Source: a virus | Lineage: Duplodnaviria > Heunggongvirae > Uroviricota > Caudoviricetes | Length of the DNA: 37,765 bases | Virus record (IMG/VR): IMGVR_UViG_643348545_000015 | Location: 1-37,765 of that record | Strand: one strand, 5' to 3' | Shown here: positions 17,473 to 36,234 of the stretch, piece by piece | How positions within the stretch are numbered: position 1 is the stretch's first letter | Layout of the letters: each line of letters begins with the position of its first letter | Program-made: the position numbers and the translations under genes | Notes under the pieces: model-generated | Databases searched by the model: none | Told to the model about the DNA's origin: nothing | Seen by the model: only the letters and a program-made list of their open reading frames with translations

Positions 17473-17475
17473 AAT

Positions 17476-18238: not shown

Positions 18239-18889
18239 TCAGCGGCTGTCATTGCGCAGTCTGCGCTCCAGCTGCTGTTTGTCTTTTTTCACGCCACAGC
18301 GGGGATCGAGCTGTAACGCATGGTTGAGATGATTAAGGGCGGACGCCGGATTGCTTTCACTCAGGACAGCGCCAATCGCTTTATGCAGACGCGCCCGTGA
18401 CTGGTCCGGCATATCCAGACCGTCTGTCAGTTCCAGCGTCTGCAGTAATAGATCCGCATCAAAGCCGGTGGCGGCAAGCATTGCGCTCTGCGCCGCGTCT
18501 GACATTTCCTCTGCCAGCACGGTCTGCACGTTGCGGTTACCCAGCGGCATCACCCAGCCATGACGCAGAGCATGACGCCCGATCTCCAGCGCCCCGGCAT
18601 AATCTCCGGCATCAATGCGCCACAGCATCACGTACATCAGCACGTCATCCTGTTGAGCGCCTCCGGCAGCCAGGACGCCCTCCGCCCAGGCGGCATATTT
18701 CGGCAGTAGCTCCACCTTGATTTCCGCTTTTTTCACCGTGGACTGAACGCCCTTGAGACGGCGGCGGTCTTCCGCCAGTTGCAGCAGCATCAGGTCATAG
18801 CCCGATGCGTGGCGAACACTGCCGCCCTCGCGGGCGGCCTGTTCAGCCTGAACGCGCAGGCGATGCTGCCGTGCGGGACTCAGGCTCAT
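18239..18889 (-). CDS. M: Terminase small (endonuclease) subunit M
   Basis: 216 aa; position between N and L. Confidence 0.8.
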   Translation of the reverse strand: MSLSPARQHRLRVQAEQAAREGGSVRHASGYDLMLLQLAEDRRRLKGVQSTVKKAEIKVELLPKYAAWAEGVLAAGGAQQDDVLMYVMLWRIDAGDYAGALEIGRHALRHGWVMPLGNRNVQTVLAEEMSDAAQSAMLAATGFDADLLLQTLELTDGLDMPDQSRARLHKAIGAVLSESNPASALNHLNHALQLDPRCGVKKDKQQLERRLRNDSR

Positions 18890-18892
18890 GGA

Positions 18893-19951: not shown

Positions 19952-19967
19952 CGGGTTTTATGCTCCA

Positions 19968-20801
19968 TCAGCAATTGGTCAGAGTGTCAGCAGGGGCGTT
20001 ACCGCCTGTTGCACGCTGGCGGTAGTCCTGGCGGCAGTCCTCATGGCTCAGCTTGTCCACCAGTTCGTTAAAGGCGGCCTGTTGTGCCTGCAGGGCAGTC
20101 TCCAACTTAGACAGGCGTTCTTCCTGCTCAGACAGGGATTTTTCGGTGCGTGCGCTCAGGTTTTGCTGCTCAGTGGCGACCAGCTCCACGGCCTTATGCA
20201 CATCAGAGAACCGGGCATCGTCGGACTGCTCTTTTTTGGTGAACAGCGCCGTGACGCGGGCAAACAGGGACGGCTTGTCCTCCTGGATTTCTTCCAGTTC
20301 GATCACCGTTTCCTCTGCGGCGGTAAAGAGATTGGCGGGATTCTGCTTGCGGTTTGCCAGCGGGTTATGGGCTGCACTGGCGCTGAATGTCAGCATTTCC
20401 GTACCCAGACTGGCTGGATCATCAGTGGCGGCCAGGCCAACCAGGTAGGCTTTGCCCGTATCAGCGAACTTCGGGCTGACTTCCATAGAGGTGAATAATT
20501 TCTGGCCTTTTTTCACCAGTTCCACCAGGGACTCCGTTGGCTCAACGTCGGCATACAGTGCCATCTTGCCCGCCAGCGGGCCTTCCGTGATTTCTTCAGC
20601 AAACAGCGCCGTCACCTTGCCGTAGCGGTTAAAGGTGCTGTCCGGCAGATAAGACTTGATGTGCTCAAGGTTAATCAGCGCGGTGTACACCGCCGGGTTG
20701 TAGCTGGCTGCCATCTGTTCCAGCCATTCACGCTGGATTTCGCGTCCGTCGGTGGTGGCACCTTCCACCCCGATGCGAAAACGCTTTGCTTTCACTGTCA
20801 T
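19968..20801 (-). CDS. O: Capsid scaffolding protein O
   Basis: 277 aa MTVKAKRFRIGVEGATTDGREI... Confidence 0.88.
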   Translation of the reverse strand: MTVKAKRFRIGVEGATTDGREIQREWLEQMAASYNPAVYTALINLEHIKSYLPDSTFNRYGKVTALFAEEITEGPLAGKMALYADVEPTESLVELVKKGQKLFTSMEVSPKFADTGKAYLVGLAATDDPASLGTEMLTFSASAAHNPLANRKQNPANLFTAAEETVIELEEIQEDKPSLFARVTALFTKKEQSDDARFSDVHKAVELVATEQQNLSARTEKSLSEQEERLSKLETALQAQQAAFNELVDKLSHEDCRQDYRQRATGGNAPADTLTNC

Positions 20802-20868
20802 GAGCCGTGCTCCGTTAGAAAAAACTTACTGGAGCCTTATGGTTGCGGTGATGGGGGCAGTGAAACAA

Positions 20869-20886
20869 TGCGCGGTATTTGTACCG
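20869..20886. promoter_or_regulatory. Candidate Ogr-dependent late promoter element in the divergent O/P intergenic region
   Basis: TGTACCGACTACCACACA, near-identical to the element upstream of FI. Confidence 0.5.
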
Positions 20887-20943
20887 ACTACCACACAAAC
20901 CGCAGGCGGGGAAAGCCTTCATTCAAGGCTGTAGGTTTGTGCC

Positions 20944-22710
20944 ATGAACACCACACTGACACCCGCAGATCTCGATCCCCGTCGGCAGGCCATGCTGCTG
21001 TACTTTCAGGGATACCGTGTAGCCCGCATTGCTGAAATGCTGGGCGAGAAAGTTGCAACCGTTCACAGCTGGAAGAAACGCGACAAGTGGGGTGACTATG
21101 GGCCGCTGGATCAGATGCAGCTCACCACCGCCGCACGCTACTGCCAGCTCATTATGAAGGAGCACAAAGAAGGGAAAGATTTCAAAGAGATTGACCTGCT
21201 GGCGCGCCAGTCGGAACGCCACGCGCGGATCGGCAAGTTTAACAATGGCGGCAACGAAGCCGACTTACCCCCTAACGTCGCCAACCGCAACAAAGGCCCG
21301 CGCCGTCAGCCGGAAAAGAATGTTTTCACCGATGAGCAGATTGAGAAGCTGGAAGAAATCTTCCATTCCTCCATGTTCAACTACCAGCGCCACTGGTGGG
21401 AAGCCGGAAAAACCAACCGCATCCGCAACCTGCTGAAGTCACGCCAGATCGGCGCGACCTTTTACTTTGCCCGTGAAGCCCTGATTGACGCTCTGCTTAC
21501 CGGACGTAACCAGATTTTCCTTTCCGCCAGCAAGGCACAGGCCCACGTCTTTAAGCAGTACATCATCGACTTCGCCAAAGAAGTGGAAGTGGAGCTGAAA
21601 GGCGATCCGATGGTGCTTCCCAACGGGGCCACACTGTATTTCCTCGGCACCAATGCCCGCACGGCCCAGAGTTACCACGGCAACCTGTATCTGGATGAAT
21701 ATTTCTGGATACCGAAATTCCAGGAGCTGCGCAAAGTGGCTTCCGGTATGGCTATTCACAAAAAATGGCGACAAACCTATTTTTCCACGCCATCCAGCCT
21801 GACACACAGTGCTTATCCGTTCTGGTCCGGTGCGCTATTCAACCGTGGGCGCAATAAAGCCGACAAGGTGGACATCGACCTGTCCCACAGCAATCTGGCT
21901 CCAGGCCTGCTGTGTGCAGACGGGCAATACCGCCAGATAGTCACCGTGGAAGATGCGGTGCGCGGCGGCTGTAACCTGTTCGACCTTGACCAGTTGCGCA
22001 TGGAATACAGCCCGGACGAATACCAGAACCTGCTGATGTGTGAATTCGTGGACGATCTCGCGTCCGTATTTCCGCTCAGCGAGCTGCAGGCATGCATGGT
22101 GGACAGTTGGGAAGTCTGGACCGACTTTCATGCACTGGCCCTGCGCCCGTTTGGCTGGCGAGAAGTGTGGATCGGTTATGACCCGGCAAAAGGTACGCAG
22201 AACGGCGACAGCGCCGGATGCGTGGTGGTGGCACCGCCAGCCGTGCCAGGCGGTAAGTTTCGCATTCTTGAGCGTCACCAGTGGCGCGGGATGGACTTCC
22301 GCGCCCAGGCTGACGCCATCAAAAAACTGACCGAACAGTACAACGTGACCTATATCGGTATCGACTCGACAGGTGTCGGTCACGGAGTTTACGAGAACGT
22401 GAAAGCGTTCTTTCCTGCCGTCCGGGAGTTTGTCTACAACCCCAACGTTAAAAATGCCCTGGTACTCAAGGCCTACGACATTATCAGCCACCGCCGTCTG
22501 GAGTTTGACGCCGGGCACACCGACATTGCGCAGTCATTCATGGCAATCCGTCGTGCCACCACCGCCAGTGGCAACCGCCCGACCTATGAAGCCAGCCGCA
22601 GCGAAGAAGCCAGCCACGCCGATCTGGCCTGGGCAACAATGCACGCACTGTTTAACGAACCGCTGCAGGGCGAGTCCGCCAATACCAGCAATATTGTGGA
22701 GATTTTTTGA
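20944..22710 (+). CDS. P: Terminase large (ATPase) subunit P
   Basis: 588 aa MNTTLTPADLDPRRQAMLLYFQGYRVARIAEMLGEK... Confidence 0.92.
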   Translation: MNTTLTPADLDPRRQAMLLYFQGYRVARIAEMLGEKVATVHSWKKRDKWGDYGPLDQMQLTTAARYCQLIMKEHKEGKDFKEIDLLARQSERHARIGKFNNGGNEADLPPNVANRNKGPRRQPEKNVFTDEQIEKLEEIFHSSMFNYQRHWWEAGKTNRIRNLLKSRQIGATFYFAREALIDALLTGRNQIFLSASKAQAHVFKQYIIDFAKEVEVELKGDPMVLPNGATLYFLGTNARTAQSYHGNLYLDEYFWIPKFQELRKVASGMAIHKKWRQTYFSTPSSLTHSAYPFWSGALFNRGRNKADKVDIDLSHSNLAPGLLCADGQYRQIVTVEDAVRGGCNLFDLDQLRMEYSPDEYQNLLMCEFVDDLASVFPLSELQACMVDSWEVWTDFHALALRPFGWREVWIGYDPAKGTQNGDSAGCVVVAPPAVPGGKFRILERHQWRGMDFRAQADAIKKLTEQYNVTYIGIDSTGVGHGVYENVKAFFPAVREFVYNPNVKNALVLKAYDIISHRRLEFDAGHTDIAQSFMAIRRATTASGNRPTYEASRSEEASHADLAWATMHALFNEPLQGESANTSNIVEIF

Positions 22711-23744
22711 TGGGAAAGAGTAAGAAAAACCGCGCTGCGGCGACGAATCAGATCCAGCATAAAAACCAGACTTCAGCCGAAGCATTCAGCTTCGGTGATC
22801 CCGTTCCAGTACTTGACCGCCGCGAACTGCTGGACTATGTGGAATGTGTTCAGACAGATCGCTGGTATGAGCCTCCCGTCAGCTTTGACGGACTGGCGCG
22901 CACCTTCCGCGCTGCCGTGCATCACAGTTCCCCGATTGCAGTAAAGTGCAACATTCTGACCAGTACCTATATCCCTCATCCGCTGCTCAGCCAACAGGCT
23001 TTTTCGCGTTTTGTGCAGGACTATCTGGTATTTGGTAACGCCTACCTGGAGAAACGCACGAACCGATTCGGTGAAGTTATCGCCCTTGAGCCTGCGCTGG
23101 CAAAATACACCCGACGCGGGTTAGACCTGGATACCTACTGGTTTGTGCAATACGGTATGACAACCCAGCCGTATCAGTTCACGAAAGGCAGCATTTTTCA
23201 TCTGATGGAACCGGACATCAACCAGGAGATCTACGGCCTGCCCGGCTATCTTTCTGCCATTCCATCCGCCCTGCTCAACGAATCCGCCACGCTGTTCCGC
23301 CGTAAGTATTACATCAACGGTAGTCATGCAGGCTTCATCATGTACATGACCGACGCCGCGCAGAATCAGGAGGATGTGAACAACCTCCGCAACGCGATGA
23401 AAAGCGCCAAAGGTCCAGGCAACTTCCGCAATCTGTTTATGTACTCGCCTAACGGCAAAAAGGACGGACTTCAGATTATCCCGTTGTCAGAAGTCGCAGC
23501 GAAGGATGAATTTCTTAACATCAAGAACGTGAGTCGGGATGACATGATGGCAGCGCACCGCGTGCCGCCGCAAATGATGGGGATTATGCCGAATAATGTT
23601 GGGGGGTTTGGGGATGTCGAAAAGGCGAGTCATGTATTTGTTCGTAACGAGTTAATTCCATTACAAAAAAGGCTAATTGAATTAAATGAATGGCTTAATG
23701 ACGAAATTATTCGTTTTGACGAATATAAATTAGGCAATACTTGA
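22710..23744 (+). CDS. Q: Portal protein Q
   Basis: 344 aa from the ATG overlapping the P stop (TGATG); the ORF track begins at TTG 22707. Confidence 0.9.
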   Translation: MGKSKKNRAAATNQIQHKNQTSAEAFSFGDPVPVLDRRELLDYVECVQTDRWYEPPVSFDGLARTFRAAVHHSSPIAVKCNILTSTYIPHPLLSQQAFSRFVQDYLVFGNAYLEKRTNRFGEVIALEPALAKYTRRGLDLDTYWFVQYGMTTQPYQFTKGSIFHLMEPDINQEIYGLPGYLSAIPSALLNESATLFRRKYYINGSHAGFIMYMTDAAQNQEDVNNLRNAMKSAKGPGNFRNLFMYSPNGKKDGLQIIPLSEVAAKDEFLNIKNVSRDDMMAAHRVPPQMMGIMPNNVGGFGDVEKASHVFVRNELIPLQKRLIELNEWLNDEIIRFDEYKLGNT

Positions 23745-23753
23745 TTAAAGCCT

Positions 23754-23787
23754 GTTTAAACTGGCTGTCGGAACAGCCAGTTTAAAC
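23754..23787. terminator. Bidirectional hairpin between Q and the convergent cargo operon
   Basis: Perfect 15-bp stem GTTTAAACTGGCTGT / ACAGCCAGTTTAAAC with loop CGGA. Confidence 0.55.
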
Positions 23788-24630
23788 ACCGGCACCAATG
23801 AAATCGCCATATGAATCTTCTTCAAGGCTGATGTATTCTACCCTCCATTGATCCATCCGCCTCAATGCATACAGGGAGAAATGAGTATCAGCAACAGCTA
23901 TGCACGTATTCAATTCTATAAGTTCTGAATGCCCCAAGGTTGGATCACCATAAAACTTATAAAACAAAGCCTTTAGATCAGAACATGTTTGTTCAGCCGC
24001 TCTTCTGGCATCGGGGCCACCTTCAGTTGCATCATAAACAACATTGATAGAAAGCTCATATGGTATGCCTTCCTCAAGATCGTTAAATCTTTCTTCGCCC
24101 AAATCGAAAAAAACTCCGATCAAATGCTCTGCGTTTGTGGCGATAATATCCGCAACTTCTTTTTCGAAAATAAACTTTTTATCCTCGTCGTAAGCCCGCA
24201 AGCGCTCTTCAAACGAGTTAGGAAACGCTGGACGACCATACTTAGCAGCTAACCATTGCTTAAGAGCTTGTTTCTCTTCTGTGCTAATGGAGAATGCTGG
24301 ATCGTTTTCCTCACAACAGAAAGCTTCTTTAGGAATGATGACTTTCCTTTCATGCCGGAGCTCTACTGCATTCTTCTTCGCACTTTCTGGGTTTTCAAAA
24401 CATAGATCGAGTATTCTCGGATGCTTAGCTCTTTTCATCCTGCTTGACCCCTTTTTCAAGGGGCCAAACATCAGTTCCACGTTTTTTTCTGAATTACTCT
24501 GTAAATCACAATCATGCGTTATAACTACAACTTTATGGTTCGTTTCATCAGGCTGCAGAATTCCAAGTGAAACGGCATCATCATGTTTAAGTACATGCCC
24601 CTGACGCCATGATGTTCCTCGTACCAACAT
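23782..24630 (-). CDS. Hypothetical protein, cargo operon gene 3
   Basis: 282 aa; ATG 9 nt after the gene 2 stop; no motif I can assign by eye; AT-rich codon usage. Confidence 0.6.
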   Translation of the reverse strand: MLVRGTSWRQGHVLKHDDAVSLGILQPDETNHKVVVITHDCDLQSNSEKNVELMFGPLKKGSSRMKRAKHPRILDLCFENPESAKKNAVELRHERKVIIPKEAFCCEENDPAFSISTEEKQALKQWLAAKYGRPAFPNSFEERLRAYDEDKKFIFEKEVADIIATNAEHLIGVFFDLGEERFNDLEEGIPYELSINVVYDATEGGPDARRAAEQTCSDLKALFYKFYGDPTLGHSELIELNTCIAVADTHFSLYALRRMDQWRVEYISLEEDSYGDFIGAGV

Positions 24631-24639
24631 AAATGTGAT

Positions 24640-25302
24640 TTATTCCTCTACCGTTCCAGGAATTGAAATAGATGACTTCCAATCATCTGTCGGTTTCGCC
24701 TTGCTTGCTAAGTAATTGGCCGATTCAGCAGCAGCATTCATCGCTTTAGCTTCATCAATCAATACCTGAACTGCCCTATTCCAATCCTCACCTTCTTTTA
24801 CTACGTCCATTAATGACTTACCATTAAATGCTTTCATTTTCACCAATAGCTTCGCATCATGGAGTCCAGCTTTGGAAAAAGAGTCAGCGACATTACTAAG
24901 GTTGGTAATGAATTGCACTTTTGAAGCATCATCAGGCTGGTTCTCCCCTGACAACCATTTATAGAGAGCCTGCCGAGTTATCCCCAAATCCTTTGCCAGT
25001 TCTGACATTGATGGAGACAGCACTTCTCGAATATTAGCTAAATGTTGGGCAACATTCCTGACATCAACCTCAGGAGAAATTGCAGGCGTGTACGTTGATT
25101 CTATGGAATCAAATGCAAACTGAACCCTTGGCTGAACATACTGACGCCATTGCTTATAAGCATTTACAGGGTATGAAGCCCCCGTACCAACTAATAGTAA
25201 AGATGCGGCGACAGCAACAACACCTGATACACATGAGCTTGACTGCAAATTTGGAGAATATCGATCTACAGAGCCTATGCTTCCGGTGGGAATTGCATAC
25301 AT
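24640..25302 (-). CDS. Hypothetical protein with N-terminal hydrophobic helix and HTH motif, cargo operon gene 2
   Basis: Start MYAIPTG... 7 nt after GGAGGTGA; hydrophobic CVSGVVAVAASLLLVGTGASY; HTH-like SMSELAKDLGITRQALYKWLSGE. Confidence 0.6.
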   Translation of the reverse strand: MYAIPTGSIGSVDRYSPNLQSSSCVSGVVAVAASLLLVGTGASYPVNAYKQWRQYVQPRVQFAFDSIESTYTPAISPEVDVRNVAQHLANIREVLSPSMSELAKDLGITRQALYKWLSGENQPDDASKVQFITNLSNVADSFSKAGLHDAKLLVKMKAFNGKSLMDVVKEGEDWNRAVQVLIDEAKAMNAAAESANYLASKAKPTDDWKSSISIPGTVEE

Positions 25303-25321
25303 TTTAGTCACCTCCGTTGTT

Positions 25322-26131
25322 TCAGTGCCATTTAGTACGGGCAAAATCTGAAACCATGCCTTCAAATGCTTCTTTAACTTTACTATGCAACGAAAGAATC
25401 TGTTTTTCAATTAACTGCAAATCAGTTGACATGTTGCCTTCAACATAATGATCTGTATCAATTATTGCGTGCATACGATGCTCTGTGTTACTAAATCTCG
25501 GCAACGGCAGTAAACCATTAGGAATCATATCTGGCGGAAAACCTAGCTGACCATTCATCTTATGTATTCGTGAAACCATAAATCCATTAGGGATCAATGG
25601 CTCAACACATGTCTGATATACGGACTCTTGTATAGACTGTATTGGCGTCCATCCGAAATCAACACCATGAAGTTCCTTTACAAGATACTGCTCAATTGTT
25701 TCGCTTTTCTCAGGAAACACAGCATCCAAATATCGAAGCCCAATCCGACTTAACAGCGATGGCTTAGCAAATTCTAGAACTTTGCTCAGACCAAGTATCA
25801 ATGACGAGATGAAAGATACATGGTTATCATAATATGTTGTATGGAACGTAATGAAATCGTTGCCTAAAACAAAACCAGATCTTCTATCTGCATCAATCAT
25901 CAACCAACTTGTCACAGGCTCAAATGAATGTACCGGTGGCTCATTGGGGTTTTTTATTTCAAATTTCAACTGAGTTGTATTGGAAACCTCAAATAAAGGA
26001 AATCCCTCAACTCTTAGCGCATCTTGTATGTCTGGAACATACTTACTCATTGCAGCTATTGGAGTAAACTTTACCTGTACCAATGCATAGTAAACGGGCG
26101 CATTGGACATACGTTCGCTGTTAGTACTCAT
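25322..26131 (-). CDS. Hypothetical protein, cargo operon gene 1
   Basis: 269 aa, RBS AAGGAGG before the ATG. The N-terminal pattern NAPVYYALVQVKF is vaguely reminiscent (from memory, unverified) of the uncharacterised TIGR04255 family. Confidence 0.6.
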   Translation of the reverse strand: MSTNSERMSNAPVYYALVQVKFTPIAAMSKYVPDIQDALRVEGFPLFEVSNTTQLKFEIKNPNEPPVHSFEPVTSWLMIDADRRSGFVLGNDFITFHTTYYDNHVSFISSLILGLSKVLEFAKPSLLSRIGLRYLDAVFPEKSETIEQYLVKELHGVDFGWTPIQSIQESVYQTCVEPLIPNGFMVSRIHKMNGQLGFPPDMIPNGLLPLPRFSNTEHRMHAIIDTDHYVEGNMSTDLQLIEKQILSLHSKVKEAFEGMVSDFARTKWH

Positions 26132-26271
26132 GCCGCCCTCCTTGAAATTGTTTCATCTCATATCTCTTTATCTTACTAACTGTAGTTTACACATAGGTTG
26201 ACACTTTCTCCATCATTAAGTTCACTATGACATCAATAGCCAAAACTCTTACGTAATCGCTTCGGCGCGCG

Positions 26272-26290
26272 CTCGTATCCCCGCCACGCC
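26272..26290 (-). other. Candidate cos site (cohesive-end sequence)
   Basis: Minus strand reads GGCGTGGCGGGGATACGAG. The first 13 nt match my recollection of the P2/186 19-nt cohesive end (GGCG[A/T]GGCGGGGAAAGCA[C/T]); orientation puts Q on the correct side. Confidence 0.35.
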
Positions 26291-26494
26291 TGCCCGCTTT
26301 ATGTAGTGGTTTTCATGCACCTGCATGATCTACGCAAAAGCCCACCAGTTCTGGCGGGCCTTAGCAAAAACGATCCTCAAACGATCATGCGATCTCATGC
26401 GGCATAGACATGCACTACAGAGCTAACGCCTCGCAAGGGCTCGTTGTTCAACCTTGCTGACGCCAGAAACAAGTTCAGACGCCAGCAACGTTTC

Positions 26495-26728
26495 TTAATG
26501 CAGCCAGCTGTCGTCTTCCCACACCTTCTGCATAATTTTCATCACTTGCTTCCTTTCTTCGTCCAGTTGCAGTCCGGTCAGTTCCACACCGTTAGAGCTA
26601 CCTTTGCGGATACGAATTACCGTTTTGGGATACAGGGGGCGCAGATTACGGTAAAGCTCGGATTCAAGGGCGTCCAGGGTAGACTGGCTAATCTTCTGCT
26701 CTTTATCGATCATTATTTCAATGCGCAT
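26495..26728 (-). CDS. dinI: DinI-family protein
   Basis: 77 aa MRIEIMIDKEQKISQSTLDALESELYRNLRPLYP...WEDDSWLH, resembling E. coli DinI; RBS GAGGTGA. Confidence 0.8.
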   Translation of the reverse strand: MRIEIMIDKEQKISQSTLDALESELYRNLRPLYPKTVIRIRKGSSNGVELTGLQLDEERKQVMKIMQKVWEDDSWLH

Positions 26729-26738
26729 AAAAGTCACC

Positions 26739-26927
26739 TCAGCTGATGACATCCATTGAGCGGTTGTATTCGTGGCTTCTGATTTTTGCCATGAGTTCAT
26801 CAGTCAATTCAGAAACCCACTGCAGAGCCAGTCCCTTCTCTTCATCACTACACTCACTGGCCGCTACAAGCTTAAGAAAAAAATCAATGCGCTGGAGCTT
26901 CAAAGACTCCAAAAAATAGTCCTGCAT
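26739..26927 (-). CDS. Small hypothetical protein, first gene of the LexA-box operon
   Basis: 62-aa ORF with RBS GGAGGAAAG, 10 nt upstream of the dinI-like gene; function unknown. Confidence 0.5.
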   Translation of the reverse strand: MQDYFLESLKLQRIDFFLKLVAASECSDEEKGLALQWVSELTDELMAKIRSHEYNRSMDVIS

Positions 26928-26970
26928 CTTTCCTCCTATGACACCACACGCAATACTGTATGTATAACCA

Positions 26971-26986
26971 CTGTTTATAATTACAG
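26971..26986. promoter_or_regulatory. LexA (SOS) box
   Basis: CTGTTTATAATTACAG, a perfect CTGT-N8-ACAG, 44-59 nt upstream of the 62-aa ORF. Confidence 0.7.
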
Positions 26987-27080
26987 TATATAATAATCTT
27001 ACTGATGTAAAACGTTTTTTTACGTTTATCAGCCTGATATGCCTGGTATTATTAAGAGCACGAATGGTTAACCATCGTAA

Positions 27081-27377
27081 TTAATACAGGTTTCGCCACT
27101 TATCATCTTCCTGCAAACGCTGGTTCCGATAGAAGATACGCAGGCCTGCTCCTGACGAAATACTGCCGCCGCGAAGGAGTAAATCGACCTCTTTCTCGCT
27201 ACCATCAAACCCTCTGGACTTCAGCTCATACACGAGCTGCTGTCGCTGATGGTCTGTAATTCGCTGTTTGTAGTCTTTACACCGTTTCGGTTTAACCAGG
27301 TGTAACCTTGCTGCCAGTTCCCGGCGTTCTTTTTTGCTCATACTGTGCAGGTAATCGTGCAACTCCTTGTCATCCAT
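27081..27377 (-). CDS. Hypothetical charged protein downstream of A
   Basis: ORF-track frame 27081-27437 opens at a TTG overlapping the A stop; first ATG at 27377 ([13 protein letters not shown]...). No clear RBS, so the call is uncertain. Confidence 0.35.
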
Positions 27378-27433
27378 GCGGGTGATATCCGTTCTGGTAT
27401 CCCCATCAGCTGATTTGTCTTTCCCTTGTTGGT

Positions 27434-29521
27434 TCAAATTTTCAGCAAGGGGACAGTTATTGCCACGAGTCCAAGGGGACAGTTATTGCCACGAGTCCAA
27501 GGGGCGCAAGCGCCCTGGTCGGCTGCCGCCTCCTGAACGTCAACGGCCTTACGAACCATTTTCCACTTCACGGCATGAGTGCAGATTTTGCCCTCTGCAA
27601 TGGGTGACCAGATGCCATAAATACGAATGCCGTGATCGCCATAGGCGGTCGGCTCTTCGTTGATTTCATAAGCGGTTCTGATGAGGTGATATTTACGGGG
27701 AACCAGTACGCCGCCCTGCTTCATGATGTAGGTGGCAAAACAACCAGCATCAGCTGCAGCCAGAATGGCATCAAGGCGCGGGTTATCCAGTACCGGCGCA
27801 CCTGCTTTTTTGTCACCCTGTTGCCTTGCCGCCTGACCAGCCAGCAATCGCAGTTCACGGTAAGCCTGACGCCCCGGAATGCCAAAGAAGCGGAATTGCT
27901 GAACACGATGCAGAGACGCCCAGGCATTAACGTATTCAGCGTTATCACGCAGAGATTTACCCGTTTCCTTGCTGATCTCGCCAGCCAGACCACGCCCGTC
28001 AATGTTCTTACTGATGTATTTCGCGATGTAGCTAGTCGGCGTTCCTTTGCGCGGGTTTATCAGCTCAGACTTAAAGCGTGGCCCCGTGTTATTACCCAGC
28101 TCCTCGCGGTCTTCACGGATAGCAAACTTACGCAACAATGCAGTAATGGCGCGGCGGTCTTTTTTGCGCATGAAACACAACAGGTGCCAGTGAACTGTGC
28201 CGTCATGATGCGGCTCAGCCACCCGCACGCCATACCAGCGCAACCCGGCTTTGTGCATCGCCTTACGAAATGCAGCAAACATGCCGACCAGATAATCACT
28301 GCTTTGTCTTACCGTCGCATTTGTCCAAGTCGGGTTGGGCCTACCGTTATTTAGCGTGGAATGGAAACGTGACGGACAGGTGATGGTGTAGAAAACGGCG
28401 CAGTCACCGCGCATTTCCGCGATAAGCTCCAGACCTTTAACACAGGCCATCATCTCATTGCGGCGATGCGCAGGGTTGCTGCTGCTGGCGTTTACCACAT
28501 CCTCCATGTCCAGCGTGTCGCCGTCTTCGTTCACCAGTTCATGAGAACGGAAAAACTCCAGCGACTTACGGCGCTGCTCACGTTTATGCATCACGGCTTC
28601 ATAGCTGACATAGGGAGATGCTTTTTTGCTGACCAGGCAAACAGCACGCAACTGCTCTTCCCGCCATTCGCAACGCATCTTCCACAATTTCCGATACCAC
28701 CAGTCGGCGCACAGCATACGCGCCAGCGACCCCGGAATGAGTTCATAGGGCACGGGTTTACGGCGGTTTCTTTTCCGGCGGAGTTGCTCAAACGCAGGCG
28801 GTATGACATCCAGTCGCAGGGTTTCCGCCGCCACCTTTTCCCATGTCTTGCGGATTTCTTCTGGCTTAACGTCATCGGTGGCATACAAATCGCCACAAGC
28901 GGCATCAAGGCACATGCTCATATGCGCAGCTACCAGGGTGGACAGGCGTTTCACCTGATCCTGACTCATTTCAGGCAGGATCAGCAGACCGTCCAGCCCT
29001 TCATGGCTTGCCATAAAGCGAAAAGAAGTGGATAGCTGACTGTCGCGTACATGCTCCAGTCGTTCCAGACATGGCTTAATCGTCTCACGCAAATAGCGGG
29101 AATAAGCCTTTGGCCTGCCCAGGCTGCTGAAGTATTCAATACGTTGCATCAGCGGCTTGCTGATATGGGAAGGCTGGGCGTTAACGTCCGCCAGAATGAC
29201 CATGCCCGGATTAAAACGCTGCTGCTCATGCGCCAGCTTTGCCCGGCTAATGAGCTTATCCTGCTCCATTTCGCGCTGGACAGGATCACGTGATTCATTA
29301 AAGAAATAACGCTCCCATACCTGATCACTCAGAGCCTCGCGGCGCAGTTGTTCCTGCTCGTTATCGGTAGCGTACAGAGTGATCAGGTTTGAAAGCGCAG
29401 AAACCGGCGCAACTTCCGCCGGGTCCAGATAAGGGTTAATGGCCTTTTTCGGGCTGTTCCATGAGAATGCTGCGGCGACCTCGTTAAAGCCGCTGCAGTT
29501 GTTCATATCAGCATGGCTCAT
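27434..29521 (-). CDS. A: Rolling-circle replication initiator endonuclease A
   Basis: 695 aa with HUH-type motif VHWHLLCF and tyrosine motif YIAKYISK. Confidence 0.9.
27446..27504. repeat. Tandem direct repeat, 2.3 copies of a 26-bp unit
   Basis: CAAGGGGACAGTTATTGCCACGAGTC at 27446-27471 and 27472-27497, plus CAAGGGG; lies in the last ~25 codons of A. Confidence 0.9.
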
Positions 29522-30375
29522 GCACGCACTCCGTACACGGCAGAACTATCCACGCCACGCGAAGGATCAAATCCCACCCAGCAGCGCGGCCCGGAAACAG
29601 CGATGATTTCTGTTGCAGATTTACTCTCACCAGCTGCTACACCGATGCTGCGTTTTGCCTTGATGTAGTGGTGAGTAAAATTGCGATACAGCGAACGGAT
29701 CAGGGATGTATCACTGTTAGAAACAATGACCGGATGTCCTTCTGATGACCGATGTTCAAGAACGGATGCCAGGTGATACTGGTCATCTTCAGTGAAACCA
29801 TCAGTGTGATAGCCGGAAAACGTACCGTCATACGGCGGATCGCAATACACCACATCCCCCACCTGCAGCATCGCCAGCGTTTCATCAAAGCTTGCGCAGA
29901 TAAACGTTGCTCGCTGGGCTTTTTCTGCAAATGTGCGAAGTTCTTTTTCAGGGAAATACGGATTTTTATAATTACCGTAGGGAATGTTGAAATGCCCGCT
30001 CTTGTTATAGCGACATAAACCACGGTAACCGTGACGATTGAGATACAGGAAATATACCGCTTTCATGAAATCAGTAATTTCAGTGGAGTAATTAAACTCC
30101 TGCCTTATGTTGTAATAAGCCACCTCCCTGTTTGCGATCTCAAATAAAACTCTGGCGCGAGATATAAACGATTCACAATCAGCGGCAACCTTTTTATAGA
30201 GGTTGATTAAATCAGGATTAATATCCGCAACCAGATAGCTGGGGTAATCCGTCTCCATCATCACAGCACAAGAACCCGCGAAAGGTTCAACCAGTCGCGG
30301 GCCTGCAGGAAGGTGTTTTTTCAGTTCGGACATAATGGCGGTTTTATTACCCGCCCATTTCAGGATGGTGCTCAT
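29518..30375 (-). CDS. DNA adenine methyltransferase (Dam-like)
   Basis: Start [11 protein letters not shown]... after AGGAGGTG; DPPY motif ([10 protein letters not shown]); stop overlaps the A start. Confidence 0.85.
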
Positions 30376-30550
30376 ACAGCACCTCCTGCAATAACATATC
30401 CTAAAGCTTCTAATGGGGTTAATGAGCGAATTGATAGCATCACCCATTGTTCTGAAACTGCCATGACGTCATTAACCGGAAGCACATGAGAGATAACCGC
30501 GGCCCATTCCCTACCCGTAAATACGCCATGCTTCCGGTAATGACTCCAAC

Positions 30551-31054
30551 TTACTGATAGTGTTTTATGTTCAGATAATGCCCGATGACCTTGTCATGCA
30601 GCTCCACCGATTTTGAGAACGACAGTGACTTCCGTCCCAGCCTTGCCAGATGTTGTCTCAGATTCAGATTATGTCGCTCAATGCGCTGAGTGTAACGCTT
30701 GCTGATAACGTGCAGCTTTCCCTTCAGGCGTGATTCATACAGCGGCCAGCCATCCGTCATCCATACCACGACCTCAAAGGCCGACAGCAGGCTCAGAAGA
30801 CGCTCCAGTGTGGCCAGAGTGCGTTCACCGAAGACGTGCGCCACAACAGTCCTCCGTATCCTGTCATACGCGTAAAACAGCCAGCGCTGACGTGATTTAG
30901 CACCGACGTAGCCCCACTGTTCGTCCATTTCAGCGCAGACAATCACATCACTGCCCGGTTGTATGCGCGAGGTTACCGACTGCGGCCTGAGTTTTTTAAG
31001 TGACGTAAAACCGTGTTGAGGCCAACGCCCATAATGCGTGCACTGGCGCGACAT
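30551..31054 (-). CDS. insB: IS1 InsB frame (transposase made as InsAB' by -1 frameshift)
   Basis: ...[44 protein letters not shown]... open frame overlapping the 3' end of insA. Confidence 0.9.
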
Positions 31055-31248
31055 CCGACGCCATTCATGGCCATATCAATGATTTTCTGGTGCGTACCGG
31101 GCTGAGAGGCGGTGTAAGTGAACTGTAGTTGCCATGTTTTACGGCAATGAGAGCAGAGATAGCGCTGATGTCCGGCAGTGCTTTTGCCGTTACGCACCAC
31201 GCCTTCAGTAGCGGAGCAGGAAGGACATCTGATGGAAATGGAAGCCAC
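30973..31248 (-). CDS. insA: IS1 InsA
   Basis: 91 aa [40 protein letters not shown]... Confidence 0.93.
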
Positions 31249-31447
31249 GCAAGCACCTTAAAATCACCATCATACACTAAATCAGTAAGTTGGCAGCATT
31301 ACCCATGCTTCCATTCGCAAAGAGAAAGAACATCACCAACTTTATAGCCACGATCGTCTTTACGAAGTTCAGCCGTCTTTTGACCTGCAACCACAGCGTT
31401 GAAATACTTAGGTGCAATTTTTAATTGATGGATACGCACAGCCCCTG

Positions 31448-31675
31448 TCATACAGCACCTCCGTTGTAATGTTTGCCTTTCAGCTCTGCGATTTCCTGGC
31501 AAGTAATGCAAAGCTGCACACCCGGAATGGCGCGGCGTCGTGCTGGCGGAATTGGCGCTTCACACTCAATGCAAAGCACGCGAGACACGCCCGGTGTTTT
31601 GGCACGAGCAGCACGGATATGGCGCTGGCGTTCTTCTTCAACGCGCTGCTGTACGAGATCCATTGCATCAGCCAT
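31448..31675 (-). CDS. TraR/DksA-type C4 zinc-finger protein
   Basis: 75 aa with [26 protein letters not shown]; stop overlaps the ASCH start. Confidence 0.7.
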
Positions 31676-31908
31676 TAGTGGATCTCCTGCGCTTCGTTCT
31701 GGATTGCTTCAGCAGTCACACGCAGCAGTTCTGCCGCTTCCACGTGGTTTAGCTGACGGGATGAGATATGACACGCCAGGCTATCAAGGCGAGCTGCCAT
31801 TGCTTCAGCCCTTGCCCGGCGTTCTTCCAGACGAGCCTCTGTCAGTAAAATATTAAGCCCTGCATCATCCGGTCCGGTTTTAGTCGTAAGGATTTCAATA
31901 TTACGCAT
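31675..31908 (-). CDS. Hypothetical early-operon protein
   Basis: MRNIEILTTKTGPDDAG..., 8 nt after AGGAGA. Confidence 0.55.
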   Translation of the reverse strand: MRNIEILTTKTGPDDAGLNILLTEARLEERRARAEAMAARLDSLACHISSRQLNHVEAAELLRVTAEAIQNEAQEIH

Positions 31909-31975
31909 AATCAATTCTCCTGAATTTAGATAAAGGGATGCCCGGCGGGTTTACGCCATTAATTTCATTAGTTGG

Positions 31976-32317
31976 TTAATTCGGCATGGTTAGCCGTTTG
32001 GGAAATAAGCTCACCACTGCACGAAAATGATTCATTGCTTTAATCAACTCCCGCTTTTCGTCAGTGGTCAGCTCATTAATGCTGATGCTATGACGTTCAG
32101 CTGGAATTTTTGCCATAAAGAATATGGCAGCCAGTGCTCGTTTATTTTGTTCGTTATTGATATCCCGTGGATCACGCATATCTTTAATAAACCGCTCAAG
32201 CTCTGACTCAATATTCAGGCCAAATACTTTCGCCCTTAACTCCGCAATGTGATTAAGTCCATTCAGGCGTTCACCGGGGCTTAATGGAACAGTCGCCGCA
32301 GCGCCATTAATTGCCAT
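31976..32317 (-). CDS. Hypothetical early-operon protein
   Basis: 113-aa ORF with ATG start, same strand as the early operon. Confidence 0.55.
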   Translation of the reverse strand: MAINGAAATVPLSPGERLNGLNHIAELRAKVFGLNIESELERFIKDMRDPRDINNEQNKRALAAIFFMAKIPAERHSISINELTTDEKRELIKAMNHFRAVVSLFPKRLTMPN

Positions 32318-32339
32318 AATTCATATCCCCAAAACGCAA

Positions 32340-32564
32340 CTATCGTTCTTTGTTCTTACGGTAACGTTCAAGAGGAGATACATTTTTTCGTATCGTCTCT
32401 TTAACCTGCTCTCCCCGTAAAAACGTCCCATCCCTTAGCGTGAAAAAGTAACTGCCATCGCCCGACAACGACGGATAACAACAGAGCAAATCATCTTCAG
32501 GTACTGAATAACTCTCCCCTCTGTAACGAAACTGATAAACCACTTCACTTTCCGCTGCATACAT
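32340..32564 (-). CDS. Hypothetical early-operon protein
   Basis: 74-aa ORF, RBS GGAGAAAG 5-6 nt before the ATG. Confidence 0.5.
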   Translation of the reverse strand: MYAAESEVVYQFRYRGESYSVPEDDLLCCYPSLSGDGSYFFTLRDGTFLRGEQVKETIRKNVSPLERYRKNKER

Positions 32565-32731
32565 TTTGACTTTCTCCGTTTCCTCGTGGTCAATTCAGAC
32601 AGCAATTCATCTTGTGAATGACATGGATGCCAGCGTTTACCATCCTCACCCATGATCCAGCCGTGACCGTAGTGCATTGCCGGGCTTTGTTTTACCAGCA
32701 GCGATGCAAATGATGGTTCTTTCGTCAGCAT
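32435..32731 (-). CDS. Hypothetical early-operon protein (3' end uncertain)
   Basis: Start MLTKEPSFASLL... 5 nt after GAGGTG just past the cII stop; the frame overlaps the next gene by 130 nt, so the true end or a frameshift is unresolved. Confidence 0.4.
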   Translation of the reverse strand: MLTKEPSFASLLVKQSPAMHYGHGWIMGEDGKRWHPCHSQDELLSELTTRKRRKSKCMQRKVKWFISFVTEGRVIQYLKMICSVVIRRCRAMAVTFSR

Positions 32732-32738
32732 AAGCACC

Positions 32739-33248
32739 TCACAGCAAACCGAATGAAGCACCGAGGCCAGTCACGGTATCAACTGCACTCACCATCGCAG
32801 GATTAGCCTGTAAACGGGCCTGCAATGAAACAGCCGCCAGCGCCATCAGTCGTGTTACAGAGTTAATGCTGCTGATAGCATCACGACGACCGGCACTAGT
32901 TTTTACATCACCAGATACCGCACCTGCTGCAACACGCCCGATCTCTGCAGTTGCGCTCATGACGTAATGCGGCAGTTTCTCTTTTGCCACCTCATTAATC
33001 GGTACACATGGCAGACAATGAATCTGTGCCAGAAAACCATCTACCAGCGTTGAATCTTCAGTCAGATCGGTAAGCAGCCAGATTTCTGGTGCGGTTAATA
33101 AATGAGGCTGAGCTGGGTTCAGCTTGTTCCGCAGAATCTGCACATTCATGCCTGCACGTTCTGCCAGTTGCACCAGGTTGTGACGCAGTGCAAAAGCCCT
33201 ACAGGCTTCATCGAAATGCGGATGTTTGGAAATCTTGTAATCAAACAT
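32739..33248 (-). CDS. cII: CII-type lysogeny establishment regulator (phage 186 CII-like)
   Basis: 169 aa [49 protein letters not shown]...SFGLL, closely matching my recollection of 186 CII. Confidence 0.85.
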
Positions 33249-33280
33249 GGTGCCCCCTTAGAAAGTTCCCATAATTGAAC

Positions 33281-33523
33281 TTACTTACCAACAATGACGC
33301 GGAAGTTGGAATGACCGAGGGATTCACGGACCTGATCAGTTTTGTACATCAGATAACGAAGGCTTACGCGGCCTTTATTTTTTTCTTTCTTGACCATGTA
33401 CTTAGCAAGTTGACCATGGTGAATTTTTTGGTAAACAGAGCCACGGGAAATGCCCTCCCACTCTGCGAACTCTGCAGGCGTAGCCATCTCTTTTGGTACA
33501 CGAATTGAAATATCAGTACTCAT
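33281..33523 (-). CDS. apl: Apl/Cox-type excisionase and lytic-lysogenic switch protein
   Basis: 80 aa with HTH TPAEFAEWEGISRGSVYQKIHHGQ; first gene of the rightward-promoter operon, divergent from cI. Confidence 0.8.
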   Translation of the reverse strand: MSTDISIRVPKEMATPAEFAEWEGISRGSVYQKIHHGQLAKYMVKKEKNKGRVSLRYLMYKTDQVRESLGHSNFRVIVGK

Positions 33524-33602
33524 AGTGCAGTATCTCTTACTTTGTGTGCGTGTTAGTTCGTTTTAGCTCGTCTCTTTAACTCTCACATCAAGAGACACGA
33601 AG

Positions 33603-33631
33603 ACATTACGATCTTGATTCAAGATTGTCAA
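33603..33631 (-). promoter_or_regulatory. Candidate lytic promoter pR with operator palindrome in the spacer
   Basis: On the minus strand: -35 TTGACA (33626-33631), 17-bp spacer containing palindrome ATCTTGA-T-TCAAGAT (33611-33625), -10 TAATGT (33603-33608). Confidence 0.55.
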
Positions 33632-33644
33632 ATGGAGATTACCA

Positions 33645-34277
33645 ATGTTAAACATCAGAATGGGTTCCGATACGGGAGGTAAGGCAGCTATTGAGAGGCT
33701 GCTTGAGGCTTATGGATTCACAACTAAGCAGGCATTAAGCGAGCACCTGAATGTCTCAAAAAGTACTATGGCAAACAGAGTGTTACGTGACAGTTTTCCT
33801 GCTGACTGGATAATTCAGTGTGCACTAGAAACCGGTGTTTCGTTACTTTGGTTAGCCACTGGACAGGGAAGCATGAAAGAAGGATACGAGCCTGAGAAAA
33901 GATCTCATAACGAGAACAAACAAGCAATTAAACCGTTATCCAAACTCATAACTCCATCTATTCCTAAAGGAACCTTGGAAAATGGACAACTCAGTATTGA
34001 TGAAGAGATTTTCCTAGACCACAGCATATTACCTGCAGATTATGAAGAATCGATGTTCTTAGAAACCCCTACTGATTGTTATCTCATCGATAAATCAGTT
34101 AAACAAGTCAGCAATGGATTCTGGCTTATCAATATTGATGGAATGATTATTATTGCAAAAATCATGCGGATTCCCGGCAATAAGATTGTAGTAAATCAAG
34201 ATGAAGCGTCTTTCGAGTGCTCTGCTGATGATGTGGAAGTTATTGGGCGTGCAGTCAAAGTAATAAAGAGTATCTAA
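33645..34277 (+). CDS. cI: Immunity repressor CI (186-type)
   Basis: 210 aa with N-terminal HTH (...LSEHLNVSKSTMANRVLRDSF...CALETGVSLLWLATGQG); I see no LexA-like Ser-Lys autocleavage motif; directly upstream of int. Confidence 0.8.
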   Translation: MLNIRMGSDTGGKAAIERLLEAYGFTTKQALSEHLNVSKSTMANRVLRDSFPADWIIQCALETGVSLLWLATGQGSMKEGYEPEKRSHNENKQAIKPLSKLITPSIPKGTLENGQLSIDEEIFLDHSILPADYEESMFLETPTDCYLIDKSVKQVSNGFWLINIDGMIIIAKIMRIPGNKIVVNQDEASFECSADDVEVIGRAVKVIKSI

Positions 34278-34279
34278 AC

Positions 34280-35296
34280 ATGACTGTCAGAAAACAGCCA
34301 AACGGTAAATGGTTGTGCGAGTGCTATCCCAATGGACGCAATGGCAAGCGCGTGCGTAAGCAATTTGCTACGAAAGGCGAAGCCATTGCTTTTGAAAGCT
34401 TCACAATGGAAGAAGTGAACAAAAAACCATGGCTGGGGGAAAAGGAAGATCGGCGACACCTATCAGAATTAATTGAGCAGTGGTATTCCCTGTATGGTCA
34501 AACACTCGCAGACCCCAAGCGCCTCATAGCGAAACTTAGAATTATCTGTAATGGTCTAGGCGATCCCATCGCTTCAGAACTGACAGCCGGTGACTTTACG
34601 AAATACCGCGAAGCACGGTTAAAAGGTGAAGTACGAAATGAAGATGGCACGTTTATGTCGCCCGTTAAGCCCCGCACGGTAAACCTTGAACAGCGCAATC
34701 TATCATCTGTTTTTGGTACACTGAAAAAGCTGGGCCACTGGTCAGCCCCCAACCCGCTTGCTGGGCTGCCAACATTTAAAATTGCTGAGAGTGAATTGGC
34801 GTTCCTGACCCCGGAAGAAATTAAACGTCTGCTGGATGCCTGCGCCGATTCTCAAAGCTCCAGCCTGCTTTTGATTGCAAAAATATGCCTGGCCACCGGC
34901 GCACGCTGGAGCGAAGCCGAAAACCTGCAGAGTCATCAGGTATCAAAATACCGTATCACTTATACCAAGACCAAAGGCAAGAAAAACCGAACTGTGCCTA
35001 TTTCTAAGGATTTATATGAAGAACTGCCTAAGAATAGGGGGAAGTTATTCACCCCATGCAGAAAAGCCTTTGAGCGTGCAGTAAAGCGGGCTGGTATCGA
35101 TCTGCCAGAGGGTCAATGTACTCACGTTCTGCGTCATACATTCGCTAGCCATTTTATGATGAATGGTGGAAACATATTGGTTTTGCGGGATATCCTAGGA
35201 CATTCAGATATAAAAATGACCATGGTCTATGCACACTTCGCCCCAGACCATTTAGAAGATGCCGTAACTAAAAATCCTTTATTTAATTTGAGGTAA
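34280..35296 (+). CDS. int: Tyrosine integrase (P2 Int family)
   Basis: 338 aa with C-terminal catalytic region ...HVLRHTFASHFMMNGGNILVLRDILGHSDIKMTMVYAHF... Confidence 0.93.
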   Translation: MTVRKQPNGKWLCECYPNGRNGKRVRKQFATKGEAIAFESFTMEEVNKKPWLGEKEDRRHLSELIEQWYSLYGQTLADPKRLIAKLRIICNGLGDPIASELTAGDFTKYREARLKGEVRNEDGTFMSPVKPRTVNLEQRNLSSVFGTLKKLGHWSAPNPLAGLPTFKIAESELAFLTPEEIKRLLDACADSQSSSLLLIAKICLATGARWSEAENLQSHQVSKYRITYTKTKGKKNRTVPISKDLYEELPKNRGKLFTPCRKAFERAVKRAGIDLPEGQCTHVLRHTFASHFMMNGGNILVLRDILGHSDIKMTMVYAHFAPDHLEDAVTKNPLFNLR

Positions 35297-35306
35297 GTAG
35301 TAATTT

Positions 35307-35975
35307 ATGAATAGCGAACTAGAGTTACTTATAAAAATATTATTCCCTTCCCTATCTGCCATTATATCCTTATTAGGGCTTAAAACAGGGTGGACTTATA
35401 AAAAAGACAAACTATTCACATCACGTAAAAACATTAGCGAATTTTCATATCAGATGTATAAAAGCAGTGAAGATCCGACCTTCAAAAAACTGGCGGAAGA
35501 TTACGGCATTGCTGCATTAACCAAAGATAACACATTGACAAAAAAACAAAGATTAATATTACTCAACACAACAAACCCCGTTAGCGATATAGATGATTAT
35601 TCCAAATGTCAAAGTCTAATTTCCATTACCACCCATAAAGAAATATTCGCATGGAATAAAAAAAGATATAAATACAGCATATATAGAAAATTAATAAAAA
35701 TTATAACAACTCTAATTTACTTCATGGGCAGTCTCATCGTAGCACTTCCTTTCAGTTATTCTGTTGTAGTAAGTGCTAAGATGATGGAGAAGATAAACCA
35801 TCTAACTACTTGGCAATACTTTGGTTTAAGCAGCTATTTTGTGGTATCGGGAGTAGCAATATGCTTTATCTGCCTAGATAAGCTCTCCAAGATTAAGATC
35901 GCCGAGAGATTAATCGTTTCAAATAGGCGTTTAGGCGACAAATGCAGTGGCGGCACTTTGGCGGCAGAAAGTTAA
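35307..35975 (+). CDS. AT-rich hypothetical membrane protein (cargo)
   Basis: 222 aa with about three hydrophobic helices (LELLIKILFPSLSAIISLLGL; IITTLIYFMGSLIVALPFSYSVVV; YFGLSSYFVVSGVAICFICL); Lys/Asn/Ile-rich; starts 11 nt after the int stop. Confidence 0.6.
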   Translation: MNSELELLIKILFPSLSAIISLLGLKTGWTYKKDKLFTSRKNISEFSYQMYKSSEDPTFKKLAEDYGIAALTKDNTLTKKQRLILLNTTNPVSDIDDYSKCQSLISITTHKEIFAWNKKRYKYSIYRKLIKIITTLIYFMGSLIVALPFSYSVVVSAKMMEKINHLTTWQYFGLSSYFVVSGVAICFICLDKLSKIKIAERLIVSNRRLGDKCSGGTLAAES

Positions 35976-36060
35976 AAACCCATAAAACGGACAGACACCG
36001 CATAAATCTAACCAACTGAAAATCAAAGCAAATCATTGTTTTTACAGACATTGAAATGCT

Positions 36061-36105
36061 ATGTAGGAATTTCGGACGCGGGTTCAACTCCCGCCAGCTC
36101 CACCA
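36061..36105. repeat. attR core: displaced 45-bp 3' end of ssrA
   Basis: Identical to 1016-1060. Confidence 0.9.
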
Positions 36106-36234
36106 ATCATGATTGGACGGTGTAAGGACTACACCAACAAAAACAGGAAGTTATAAGTCTCAGCAGGACACCGACCAGACGGTGAGGAGACAAAAAAGGA
36201 TACGCAACGGAGTCGCGACTCCCTATGACATTAA

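Follow-up and report, generated by a model that had tools for sequence, protein, structure and literature searches.

A tandemly repeated origin core, predicted by homology to P2, in the frameshifted replication gene A of a Fels-2-type Escherichia coli prophage

The tandem repeat and the reading frame of gene A

The window, that is, the whole stretch of 37,765 nucleotides in IMG/VR virus record IMGVR_UViG_643348545_000015, carries a Fels-2-type prophage of the P2 family, and its minus strand encodes the replication protein gpA, the product of gene A. An array of 26-bp repeats lies on the coding strand of the A open reading frame (ORF), across codons ~674-693 and 3' of the region coding for the catalytic domain (Table 1). 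Tandem Repeats Finder gave a period of 26, 2.3 copies, 100% matches and a score of 118, with the consensus CAAGGGGACAGTTATTGCCACGAGTC, and a repeat search resolved the array into two exact 26-nt copies and a 7-nt partial copy. An earlier note on this DNA had described the two full copies and the partial one, with the units read in two different frames (TRGNNCPL then GLVAITVPL); the copies are 100% identical and the two-frame reading is correct for ORF 27434-29521. The 26-mer CCCCTTGGACTCGTGGCAATAACTGT, in which the upstream 7 nt are contained, has two occurrences in the window and no others at up to three mismatches, and it gave no match in 100 shuffles.

Table 1. Features of the window. A slash marks the predicted nick bond, here and in the text.
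Feature	Position	Strand	Remarks
Truncated replication gene A, 695 aa	27434..29521	-	last 20 codons in shifted frame
Orphan ORF, 118 codons, TTG 'start'	27081..27437	-	out-of-frame C-terminal tail of ancestral gpA
Tandem array, 26-bp duplication of putative origin (ori) core	27446..27504	-	A-sense order: CCCCTTG, unit 1, unit 2
5' 7-mer CCCCTTG (partial copy)	27504-27498	-	A-sense strand
Unit 1, GACTCGTGGCAATAACTGTCCCCTTG	27497-27472	-	A-sense strand
Unit 2	27471-27446	-	relatives have one unit
Predicted gpA nick site 1, CTTG/GACT	27497..27498	-	homologous to P2 nick after nt 29892, 186 28576
Second complete predicted nick site, CCCCTTG/GACTCG	27471..27472	-	made by duplication
Ancestral pseudo-site, CCCCTTG/CTGAAA	27445..27446	-	right-hand duplication endpoint
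GC-rich palindrome, GGGCGC-TT-GCGCCC	27502..27515	-	ends 4 nt 5' of nick
Fels-2-type (Felsduovirus-like) P2-family prophage	1016..36106		integrated at ssrA, 46-bp attachment (att) repeat
46-bp att repeats	1016-1061 and 36061-36106		
tmRNA gene (ssrA)	698-1060		
Apparent invertible segment	8960-11158		looks like Gin/Cin type
DNA invertase gene	8960-9532	-	phrog_125, E = 3e-101
ORFs adjoining invertase	9554-11158	+	tail-fibre C-terminal and fibre-assembly matches
Three cargo ORFs	23782-26131	-	282 aa, 256 aa, 269 aa
222-aa ORF	35307-35975		between int and attR

The protein encoded by the window has the Phage_GPA domain (PF05840, residues 188-510, E = 6e-128) together with the HUH motif HWH at 444-446 and the two-tyrosine motif YIAKY at 498-502, whose counterparts in P2 gpA lie at 399 (HWH) and 450-454 (YIAKY). 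It thus has the domain, the HUH motif and the YxxxY motif of a Phage_GPA rolling-circle initiator and lacks the full length with the conserved C-terminal tail, being 695 aa long as against 804 aa in relatives. In those relatives A measures 2415-2430 nt (804-809 aa) and continues through the stop codon of the window version to the end of ORF 27081-27437. The window is longer here by 26 bp than each close phage relative (52 records, among them RE2010, Fels-2, Cartapus and many Klebsiella phages), and some 1,100 E. coli prophages are likewise 26 bp shorter than the window at the array. In silico deletion of one unit gave an 804-aa ORF with 98.3% identity to RE2010 gpA from end to end.

In a tblastn comparison of the RE2010 proteins with the window, A was split at the repeat between frames -1 and -3. 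Thirty-nine other RE2010 proteins each matched in a single frame, most of them over the full length; the tail fibre, fibre assembly, portal and fil proteins matched in part, and gp01 gave no match in the window. Furthermore, in the E. coli genomes with an identical two-copy array the gene is flagged as a 'replication endonuclease, frameshifted' pseudogene by the NCBI Prokaryotic Genome Annotation Pipeline. The duplication shifts the frame of A, 26 not being divisible by 3. Judged against its relatives, the window A is the frameshifted product of a derived extra unit, the ancestral state being one unit. The earlier note had anticipated that a change of one unit would alter the C-terminus of A, as the 695 aa of the window against 804 aa bear out. 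It had also placed the array in the native last ~25 codons of the gene; in fact the array lies around codon 675 of 804, and the apparent end of the gene is made by the premature stop that the repeat introduces.

The short ORF that follows A had been taken for a neighbouring gene coupled to it through an ATGA overlap. The overlap sequence is TTGA, and the start of the ORF is merely the first TTG after a stop, so that no such coupling applies. We also considered the ORF as an independent gene and rejected this, since it belongs to no Pfam family, matches the C-terminal part of the gpA profile (phrog_91, positions 661-759), aligns with the gpA tails of 186 and P2, and fuses in frame with A after removal of one unit. 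As the A genes of relatives run through the stop codon of the window and removal of one unit restores 804 aa, ORF 27081-27437 is best read as the displaced tail of A. By this comparison the truncated protein keeps its catalytic domain and motifs and is without ~120 conserved C-terminal residues, and the coding sequence of the tail survives as the orphan ORF. The truncation probably matters for A function. Given that the prophage is otherwise intact, the lesion in A would be recent and probably impairs phage replication; hence the window most likely holds a recently disabled, replication-impaired and otherwise intact prophage. In practice, A and the following ORF should be merged in the annotation of the window into a single frameshifted replication gene.

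The PHROGs family phrog_23581 (118 positions, 'unknown function') matches the orphan tail from end to end, and phrog_14885 is listed alongside it. On the strength of this end-to-end match, phrog_23581 appears to have been built from split-A alleles and not to be a real gene family.

The origin core and its length variants

The position of the array within A led to comparison with the annotated origins of P2 and 186. GenBank record NC_001895 (P2) annotates a 'nick site at ori' at nt 29892, and NC_001317 (186) a rep_origin at 28576, 'located by similarity with P2; consistent with electron microscopy mapping'. Experimental mapping of the P2 nick site goes back to Liu & Haggard-Ljungquist 1994, cited in PMC3986222. 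Written across the nick, the aligned sequences are GCGCCTCG/GAGTCCTGTCAATAACTGT for P2, GCCCTCTCG/GAGTTCTGTCAATAACTGT for 186 and GCGCCCCTTG/GACTCGTGGCAATAACTGT for the window, where the 5' side ends in CCCCTTG. The two annotated coordinates fall in the same alignment column, within the conserved block CTYGGA..T..TG.CAATAACTGT, and when P2, 186, Fels-2, RE2010 and the window are aligned together 19 of the 26 positions are invariant (CC.CT.GGA.T..TG.CAATAACTGT). The array therefore lies inside the A reading frame, as the origins of the P2 family do, and is homologous to the mapped P2 nick and its 3' flank.

Small GC hairpins occupy the same place in the other lineages, GGGCGC-TTCT-GCGCCC in 186 and GCGGC-ATC-GCCGC, differing in sequence, in P2, so that in all three lineages a hairpin stands 4-5 nt 5' of the nick; fold z-scores alone are not significant. 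The left boundary of duplications without microhomology, described below, namely one of 21 bp (locus L018) and those of 6 bp in P2-type and 186-type prophages, coincides with the bond of nick site 1. In the ancestral Fels-2-type sequence the CCCCTTG found 5' of the nick recurs 26 nt downstream, and the duplicated interval runs from the nick to this second 7-mer. These comparisons support the view that the repeated unit is the rolling-circle origin core of the prophage, consisting of a nick site CCCCTTG/GACTCG and a conserved 3' recognition block TGGCAATAACTGT, inside A. The suggestion in the earlier note that the repeats could be origin-associated is thus upheld, since the unit corresponds by homology to the ori nick sites annotated in P2 and 186.

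Among 5,426 complete E. coli genomes, ~1,099 carry this type of A, and eight of these have the allele with one extra unit (+26). A separate short junction query against E. coli genomes was uninformative, as BLAST pieces were joined across the repeat. IMG/VR viral contigs gave five two-copy loci (one with a single-nucleotide polymorphism) and one three-copy locus versus at least 120 single-copy ones, and three metagenome contigs have two copies. The exact two-copy pattern was absent from 185,579 species-representative genomes. One unit is thus the state in ~99% of relatives (~1,100 E. coli prophages) and in all 52 isolated Fels-2-type phage records. The comparison of copy number among related prophages proposed in the earlier note does show variation: one, two and three copies coexist among relatives, with the frameshifted 'off' alleles as rare singletons on the tree. 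No variants were seen among isolated phages (0/52 Fels-2-type and 0/77 P2-type), numbers too small to show counter-selection.

For 125 loci, 800 bp of flanking sequence were used to build a neighbour-joining tree, on which the 11 +26 alleles require 11 gains and the five +6 alleles require five, the same as for random placement, and the nearest neighbour of nearly every variant allele is a single-copy allele. Two loci, L012 (+26) and L025 (+6), have identical flanks. The simplest reading is that +26 arose repeatedly, though recombination could blur the picture.

Length variants were taken from a 299-501-bp BLAST window, which is unbiased, and from gapped pattern scans. Those found in Fels-2-type prophages are +6 (GACTCG twice; four E. 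coli genomes and four IMG/VR contigs), +12 (GACTCG three times; one genome), +21 (GACTCGTGGCAATAACTGTCC twice, with no microhomology; one genome, L018), +26 (one extra unit; eight E. coli genomes, five IMG/VR contigs and three metagenome contigs), +52 (two extra units; one contig, L007) and -36 (CCCCTTG/GAACC, the whole 3' half of ori being gone; E. coli Combat2C1). All six classes start at CTTG/GAC and extend in the 3' direction, and the genes with in-frame variants are annotated as intact.

A +6 allele in P2-type prophages had been predicted from nick anchoring before the search was made. With a synthetic query in which GAGTCC was doubled right after nt 29892, precisely this allele was recovered from three E. 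coli genomes (0-4, 23AR0762 and 1335KP), whose prophages differ in their cargo genes. In 186-type prophages GAGTTC is doubled at the homologous bond in one IMG/VR contig (L155) and in 1 of 59 E. coli genomes (L163). The P2-type and 186-type duplications have no microhomology, and their boundaries are consequently unambiguous; A is annotated as intact in the four annotated E. coli records, L155 being an unannotated IMG/VR contig. The variants hence have one endpoint exactly at the nick in independent events, several of them with zero microhomology, as nick-anchored recombination would produce. Taken together, the alleles support a recurrent series of small rearrangements that appears to start at the nick bond in P2-family prophages.

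Two further predictions were uninformative. Neither a +50 allele, predicted at the next CTCG of the 186-type ori, nor, within IMG/VR, any insertion of 1-31 nt at the P2-type nick turned up, both searches lacking a denominator. A CTYG/ pseudo-site as a general rule for the right-hand endpoint was rejected; it fits the Fels-2-type +6 and +26 and not the +21, the -36 or the P2-type and 186-type +6.

Several other records bear on this region. In E. coli Combat2C1 (NZ_CP019243.1) the in-frame 36-bp deletion from the nick removes the conserved 3' half of ori and leaves the A ORF open, so this prophage is probably ori-minus. CP019275.1 ('plasmid p13P477T-2', 37,446 bp, circular) is the genome of a Fels-2-type phage that was submitted as a circular plasmid. 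Both A and dam are flagged there as frameshifted, the ori is single-copy, and one inserted base close to it has the look of a sequencing error. The length difference of +9 in this record was considered as an ori variant and proved to consist of scattered single-base indels. In a P2-like lineage, IMGVR_UViG_2531839591_000017 has two ori cores AGTTCTGTCAATAACTGTACGGAGGGTG 33 bp apart, with CTTGG between them, at about minus-strand 7190-7235; this doubling is an imperfect, in-frame duplication. A scan for two ori cores within 31 nt also returned five identical unrelated contigs, which were judged to be chance matches. The sole match to the gapped pattern among the species-representative genomes was a 1.8-kb Formivibrio metagenome-assembled contig (CAXYUI010000370.1), in which anchors of 16 nt and 11 nt match around an unrelated 50 nt, and this too is probably due to chance.

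Competing explanations for the duplication

We consider it probable that the 26-bp repeat is a recent duplication of the ori nick site, a by-product of nicking and joining by gpA, which has frameshifted A. What is observed is the ori homology, a derived, rare and polyphyletic allele, the frameshift in A and the common boundary and direction of the variants; from these we infer the dependence on gpA, the exact chemistry and the loss of function. In the proposed mechanism the 3'-OH of the nicked strand would be extended by n nt past the nick with gpA still bound to the 5' end, either after nicking or at the termination of a round. Were the extended 3' end then rejoined to the gpA-bound 5' end, the n nt that follow the nick on its 3' side would be present twice in tandem. 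The same n-nt duplication could result if gpA cleaved a downstream pseudo-site rather than the regenerated nick, and reciprocal joining would give a deletion starting at the nick. A length of n = 26 would be favoured because the 7 nt 5' of the nick, CCCCTTG, recur there; n = 6 is the commonest in-frame outcome in the three genera examined. Synthesis past the nick has a precedent in pT181, where it continues for 10-12 nt before strand transfer (PMC5703833). Other nick-dependent routes, such as re-ligation of a flap or collapse of a replication fork at a persistent nick, would anchor at the same bond.

The most serious competitor is ordinary replication slippage, in which the nascent strand misaligns between the CCCCTTG repeats and the link to ori is incidental, the 7-mer coinciding by chance with the 5' half of the nick site. 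These 7-bp direct repeats, 26 bp apart and a perfect microhomology flanking the unit, are a classical slippage substrate that would give the same +26 product without gpA; the step from two to three copies in L007 is typical of slippage, and recurrent origin is compatible with any hotspot. Slippage nevertheless leaves several alleles unexplained: the +21 of a Fels-2-type prophage and the +6 of the P2-type and 186-type prophages, all of which lack microhomology and share their left boundary, and the -36 deletion that starts at the nick. Deletions normally arise by slippage no less often than duplications do, yet neither IMG/VR nor E. coli yielded a -26 allele, and another 7-bp repeat within 40 bp (GTCAGGC, in the same 800 bp) is unduplicated in all 125 loci. 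On balance we regard slippage as a rather unlikely account of the +26 allele. The earlier note had proposed a slippage hotspot, and of this the hotspot stands, with one, two or three copies and recurrent events; the mechanism probably goes beyond slippage, given that sister rearrangements begin at the identical bond and lack microhomology.

That the unit is the ori core, that alleles of one, two and three copies exist, and that two tandem nick sites could in principle resolve to one by initiation and termination at different sites would all suit a functional origin architecture, whether as iteron-like gpA binding or nick sites under selection or as a reversible, phase-variable copy-number switch. 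Iterons would be kept in multiple copies across relatives, and here a single copy is the rule both in the E. coli prophages and in the isolated phages. The two-copy state moreover destroys the A frame, leaving an annotated pseudogene, and the alleles are scattered singletons on the tree and not a maintained lineage; we consider such an architecture highly improbable. A sequencing or assembly artefact is the least credible explanation of all and can practically be dismissed. Mis-assembly can yield short tandem duplications, and CP019275.1 shows single-base indels of the scattered kind typical of long-read errors, but the identical 52-nt array occurs in eight independent complete E. coli genomes, including S88, and in seven further independent IMG/VR or metagenome contigs of different haplotypes, with one mismatch in an eighth (L022).

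Some points weigh against duplication through nicking and joining by gpA, besides the slippage substrate already described. The nick position in Fels-2-type prophages is placed by homology to P2, and the annotations of P2 and 186 follow conventions one nucleotide apart. The survey was partly anchored on the nick site, which brings ascertainment bias; the unbiased part is confined to the 299-bp and 501-bp BLAST censuses. The right-hand endpoints of the +6, +21 and -36 alleles have no convincing common pseudo-site consensus, and therefore no single chemical model covers all lengths. Finally, E. coli KL53 (L160) has, besides +6, a 12-bp tandem duplication (CAAGGGAAAGAC twice) ~45 nt downstream in the A tail. 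This is the sole length change that is not at the nick bond, and it indicates that ordinary duplications also happen in the region.

A stronger form of the proposal is that gpA itself writes the rearrangements, P2-family initiators now and then sealing the extended 3' end onto the gpA-bound 5' end once a short characteristic overshoot has been made (6 nt in three genera, and 26 nt where the 5' half-site recurs), and that the two-copy allele is a self-correcting off state. We put this forward tentatively, as a possibility with the balance tilted against it. Speculatively, given a supply of gpA, a functional A would return when a round initiated at one of the two nicks and terminated at the second.

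Setting, parallels and significance

The window is an E. coli segment, its glaH flank being 99.3% identical to E. coli chromosomes, with the prophage bounded by the att repeats given in Table 1. Next to the invertase gene, ORFs on the plus strand match C-terminal tail-fibre and fibre-assembly segments and run opposite to the fibre gene, and the whole looks like a Gin/Cin-type invertible host-range segment. Three cargo ORFs lie between the portal gene and DinI, the 256-aa one with a helix-turn-helix domain; none of them received a Pfam or PADLOC assignment beyond weak helix-turn-helix matches. The cargo of relatives at this position is varied and includes proteins with SIR2, AIPR, TIR, DarT/macro and HEPN domains. 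The 222-aa ORF between int and attR belongs with phrog_21256 and has a weak 1TM-TIR match.

With the P2 and 186 origins the window shares the position inside A downstream of the catalytic domain, the block CTYG/GA..T..TG.CAATAACTGT, the small GC hairpin just 5' of the nick and a gpA of the family with HWH and YIAKY. It differs in having the core twice in tandem, in having CCCCTTG and not GCGCCTCG as its 5' half, and in that its nick is predicted by homology. The origin is likewise embedded in the initiator's own gene in phiX174, whose gene A protein is an HUH initiator with two tyrosines. The phiX174 nick context, which we take to be CAACTTG/ATATTAATAAC, is similar to CCCCTTG/GACTCGTGGCAATAAC of the window; phiX174 differs in its single-stranded DNA genome, and we know of no comparable natural duplication series there.

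Illegitimate recombination at the nick sites of rolling-circle initiators is classical for M13 and pC194, and Michel and Ehrlich reportedly described in 1986 such events by M13 gene II protein and pC194 RepA. As in the M13, pC194 and pT181 cases, one end of each rearrangement described here is fixed exactly at the nick and the other end varies; with +26 this second end looks like the nick site's 5' half. If synthesis overshoots the nick ahead of strand transfer, as with pT181 RepC, the duplicated nucleotides would have a ready source. Most classical examples are deletions or cointegrates obtained by laboratory selection in plasmids and filamentous phage. The present series comes instead from natural populations of prophages of a double-stranded DNA phage and consists of short tandem duplications of 6-52 nt, and it feeds back on the initiator because the rearrangements lie inside the initiator's own gene. 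Slipped-strand contingency loci are alike in a unit that is not a multiple of 3, in copy-number polymorphism among close relatives and in frame switching; the window differs from them in its long 26-nt unit, its range of one to three copies and its rare and scattered off state. Keyword searches, with incomplete coverage of the literature, found no description of natural recurrent nick-anchored tandem duplications in gene A of the P2 family. The ori-within-A arrangement and the gpA family are already well known, and the recurrent natural duplication series in gene A is apparently undescribed.

The locus shows the ori embedded in A to be a hotspot of repeated mutation, where changes can knock out the initiator acting on this same ori or modify it in frame, and so offers a simple route to replication-defective but otherwise intact prophages. 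Late gene expression and lysis in phages of the P2/186 type depend on replication, and therefore lysogens with a truncated A may survive induction, which could enrich such alleles. The boundary common to P2-, 186- and Fels-2-type elements provides a way to locate nick sites from sequence only, and the variants may record, in nature, the errors made in strand transfer by nicking enzymes of the HUH type, to which gpA belongs. If it is true that gpA writes these rearrangements, population genomics would map rolling-circle nick sites at single-bond resolution.

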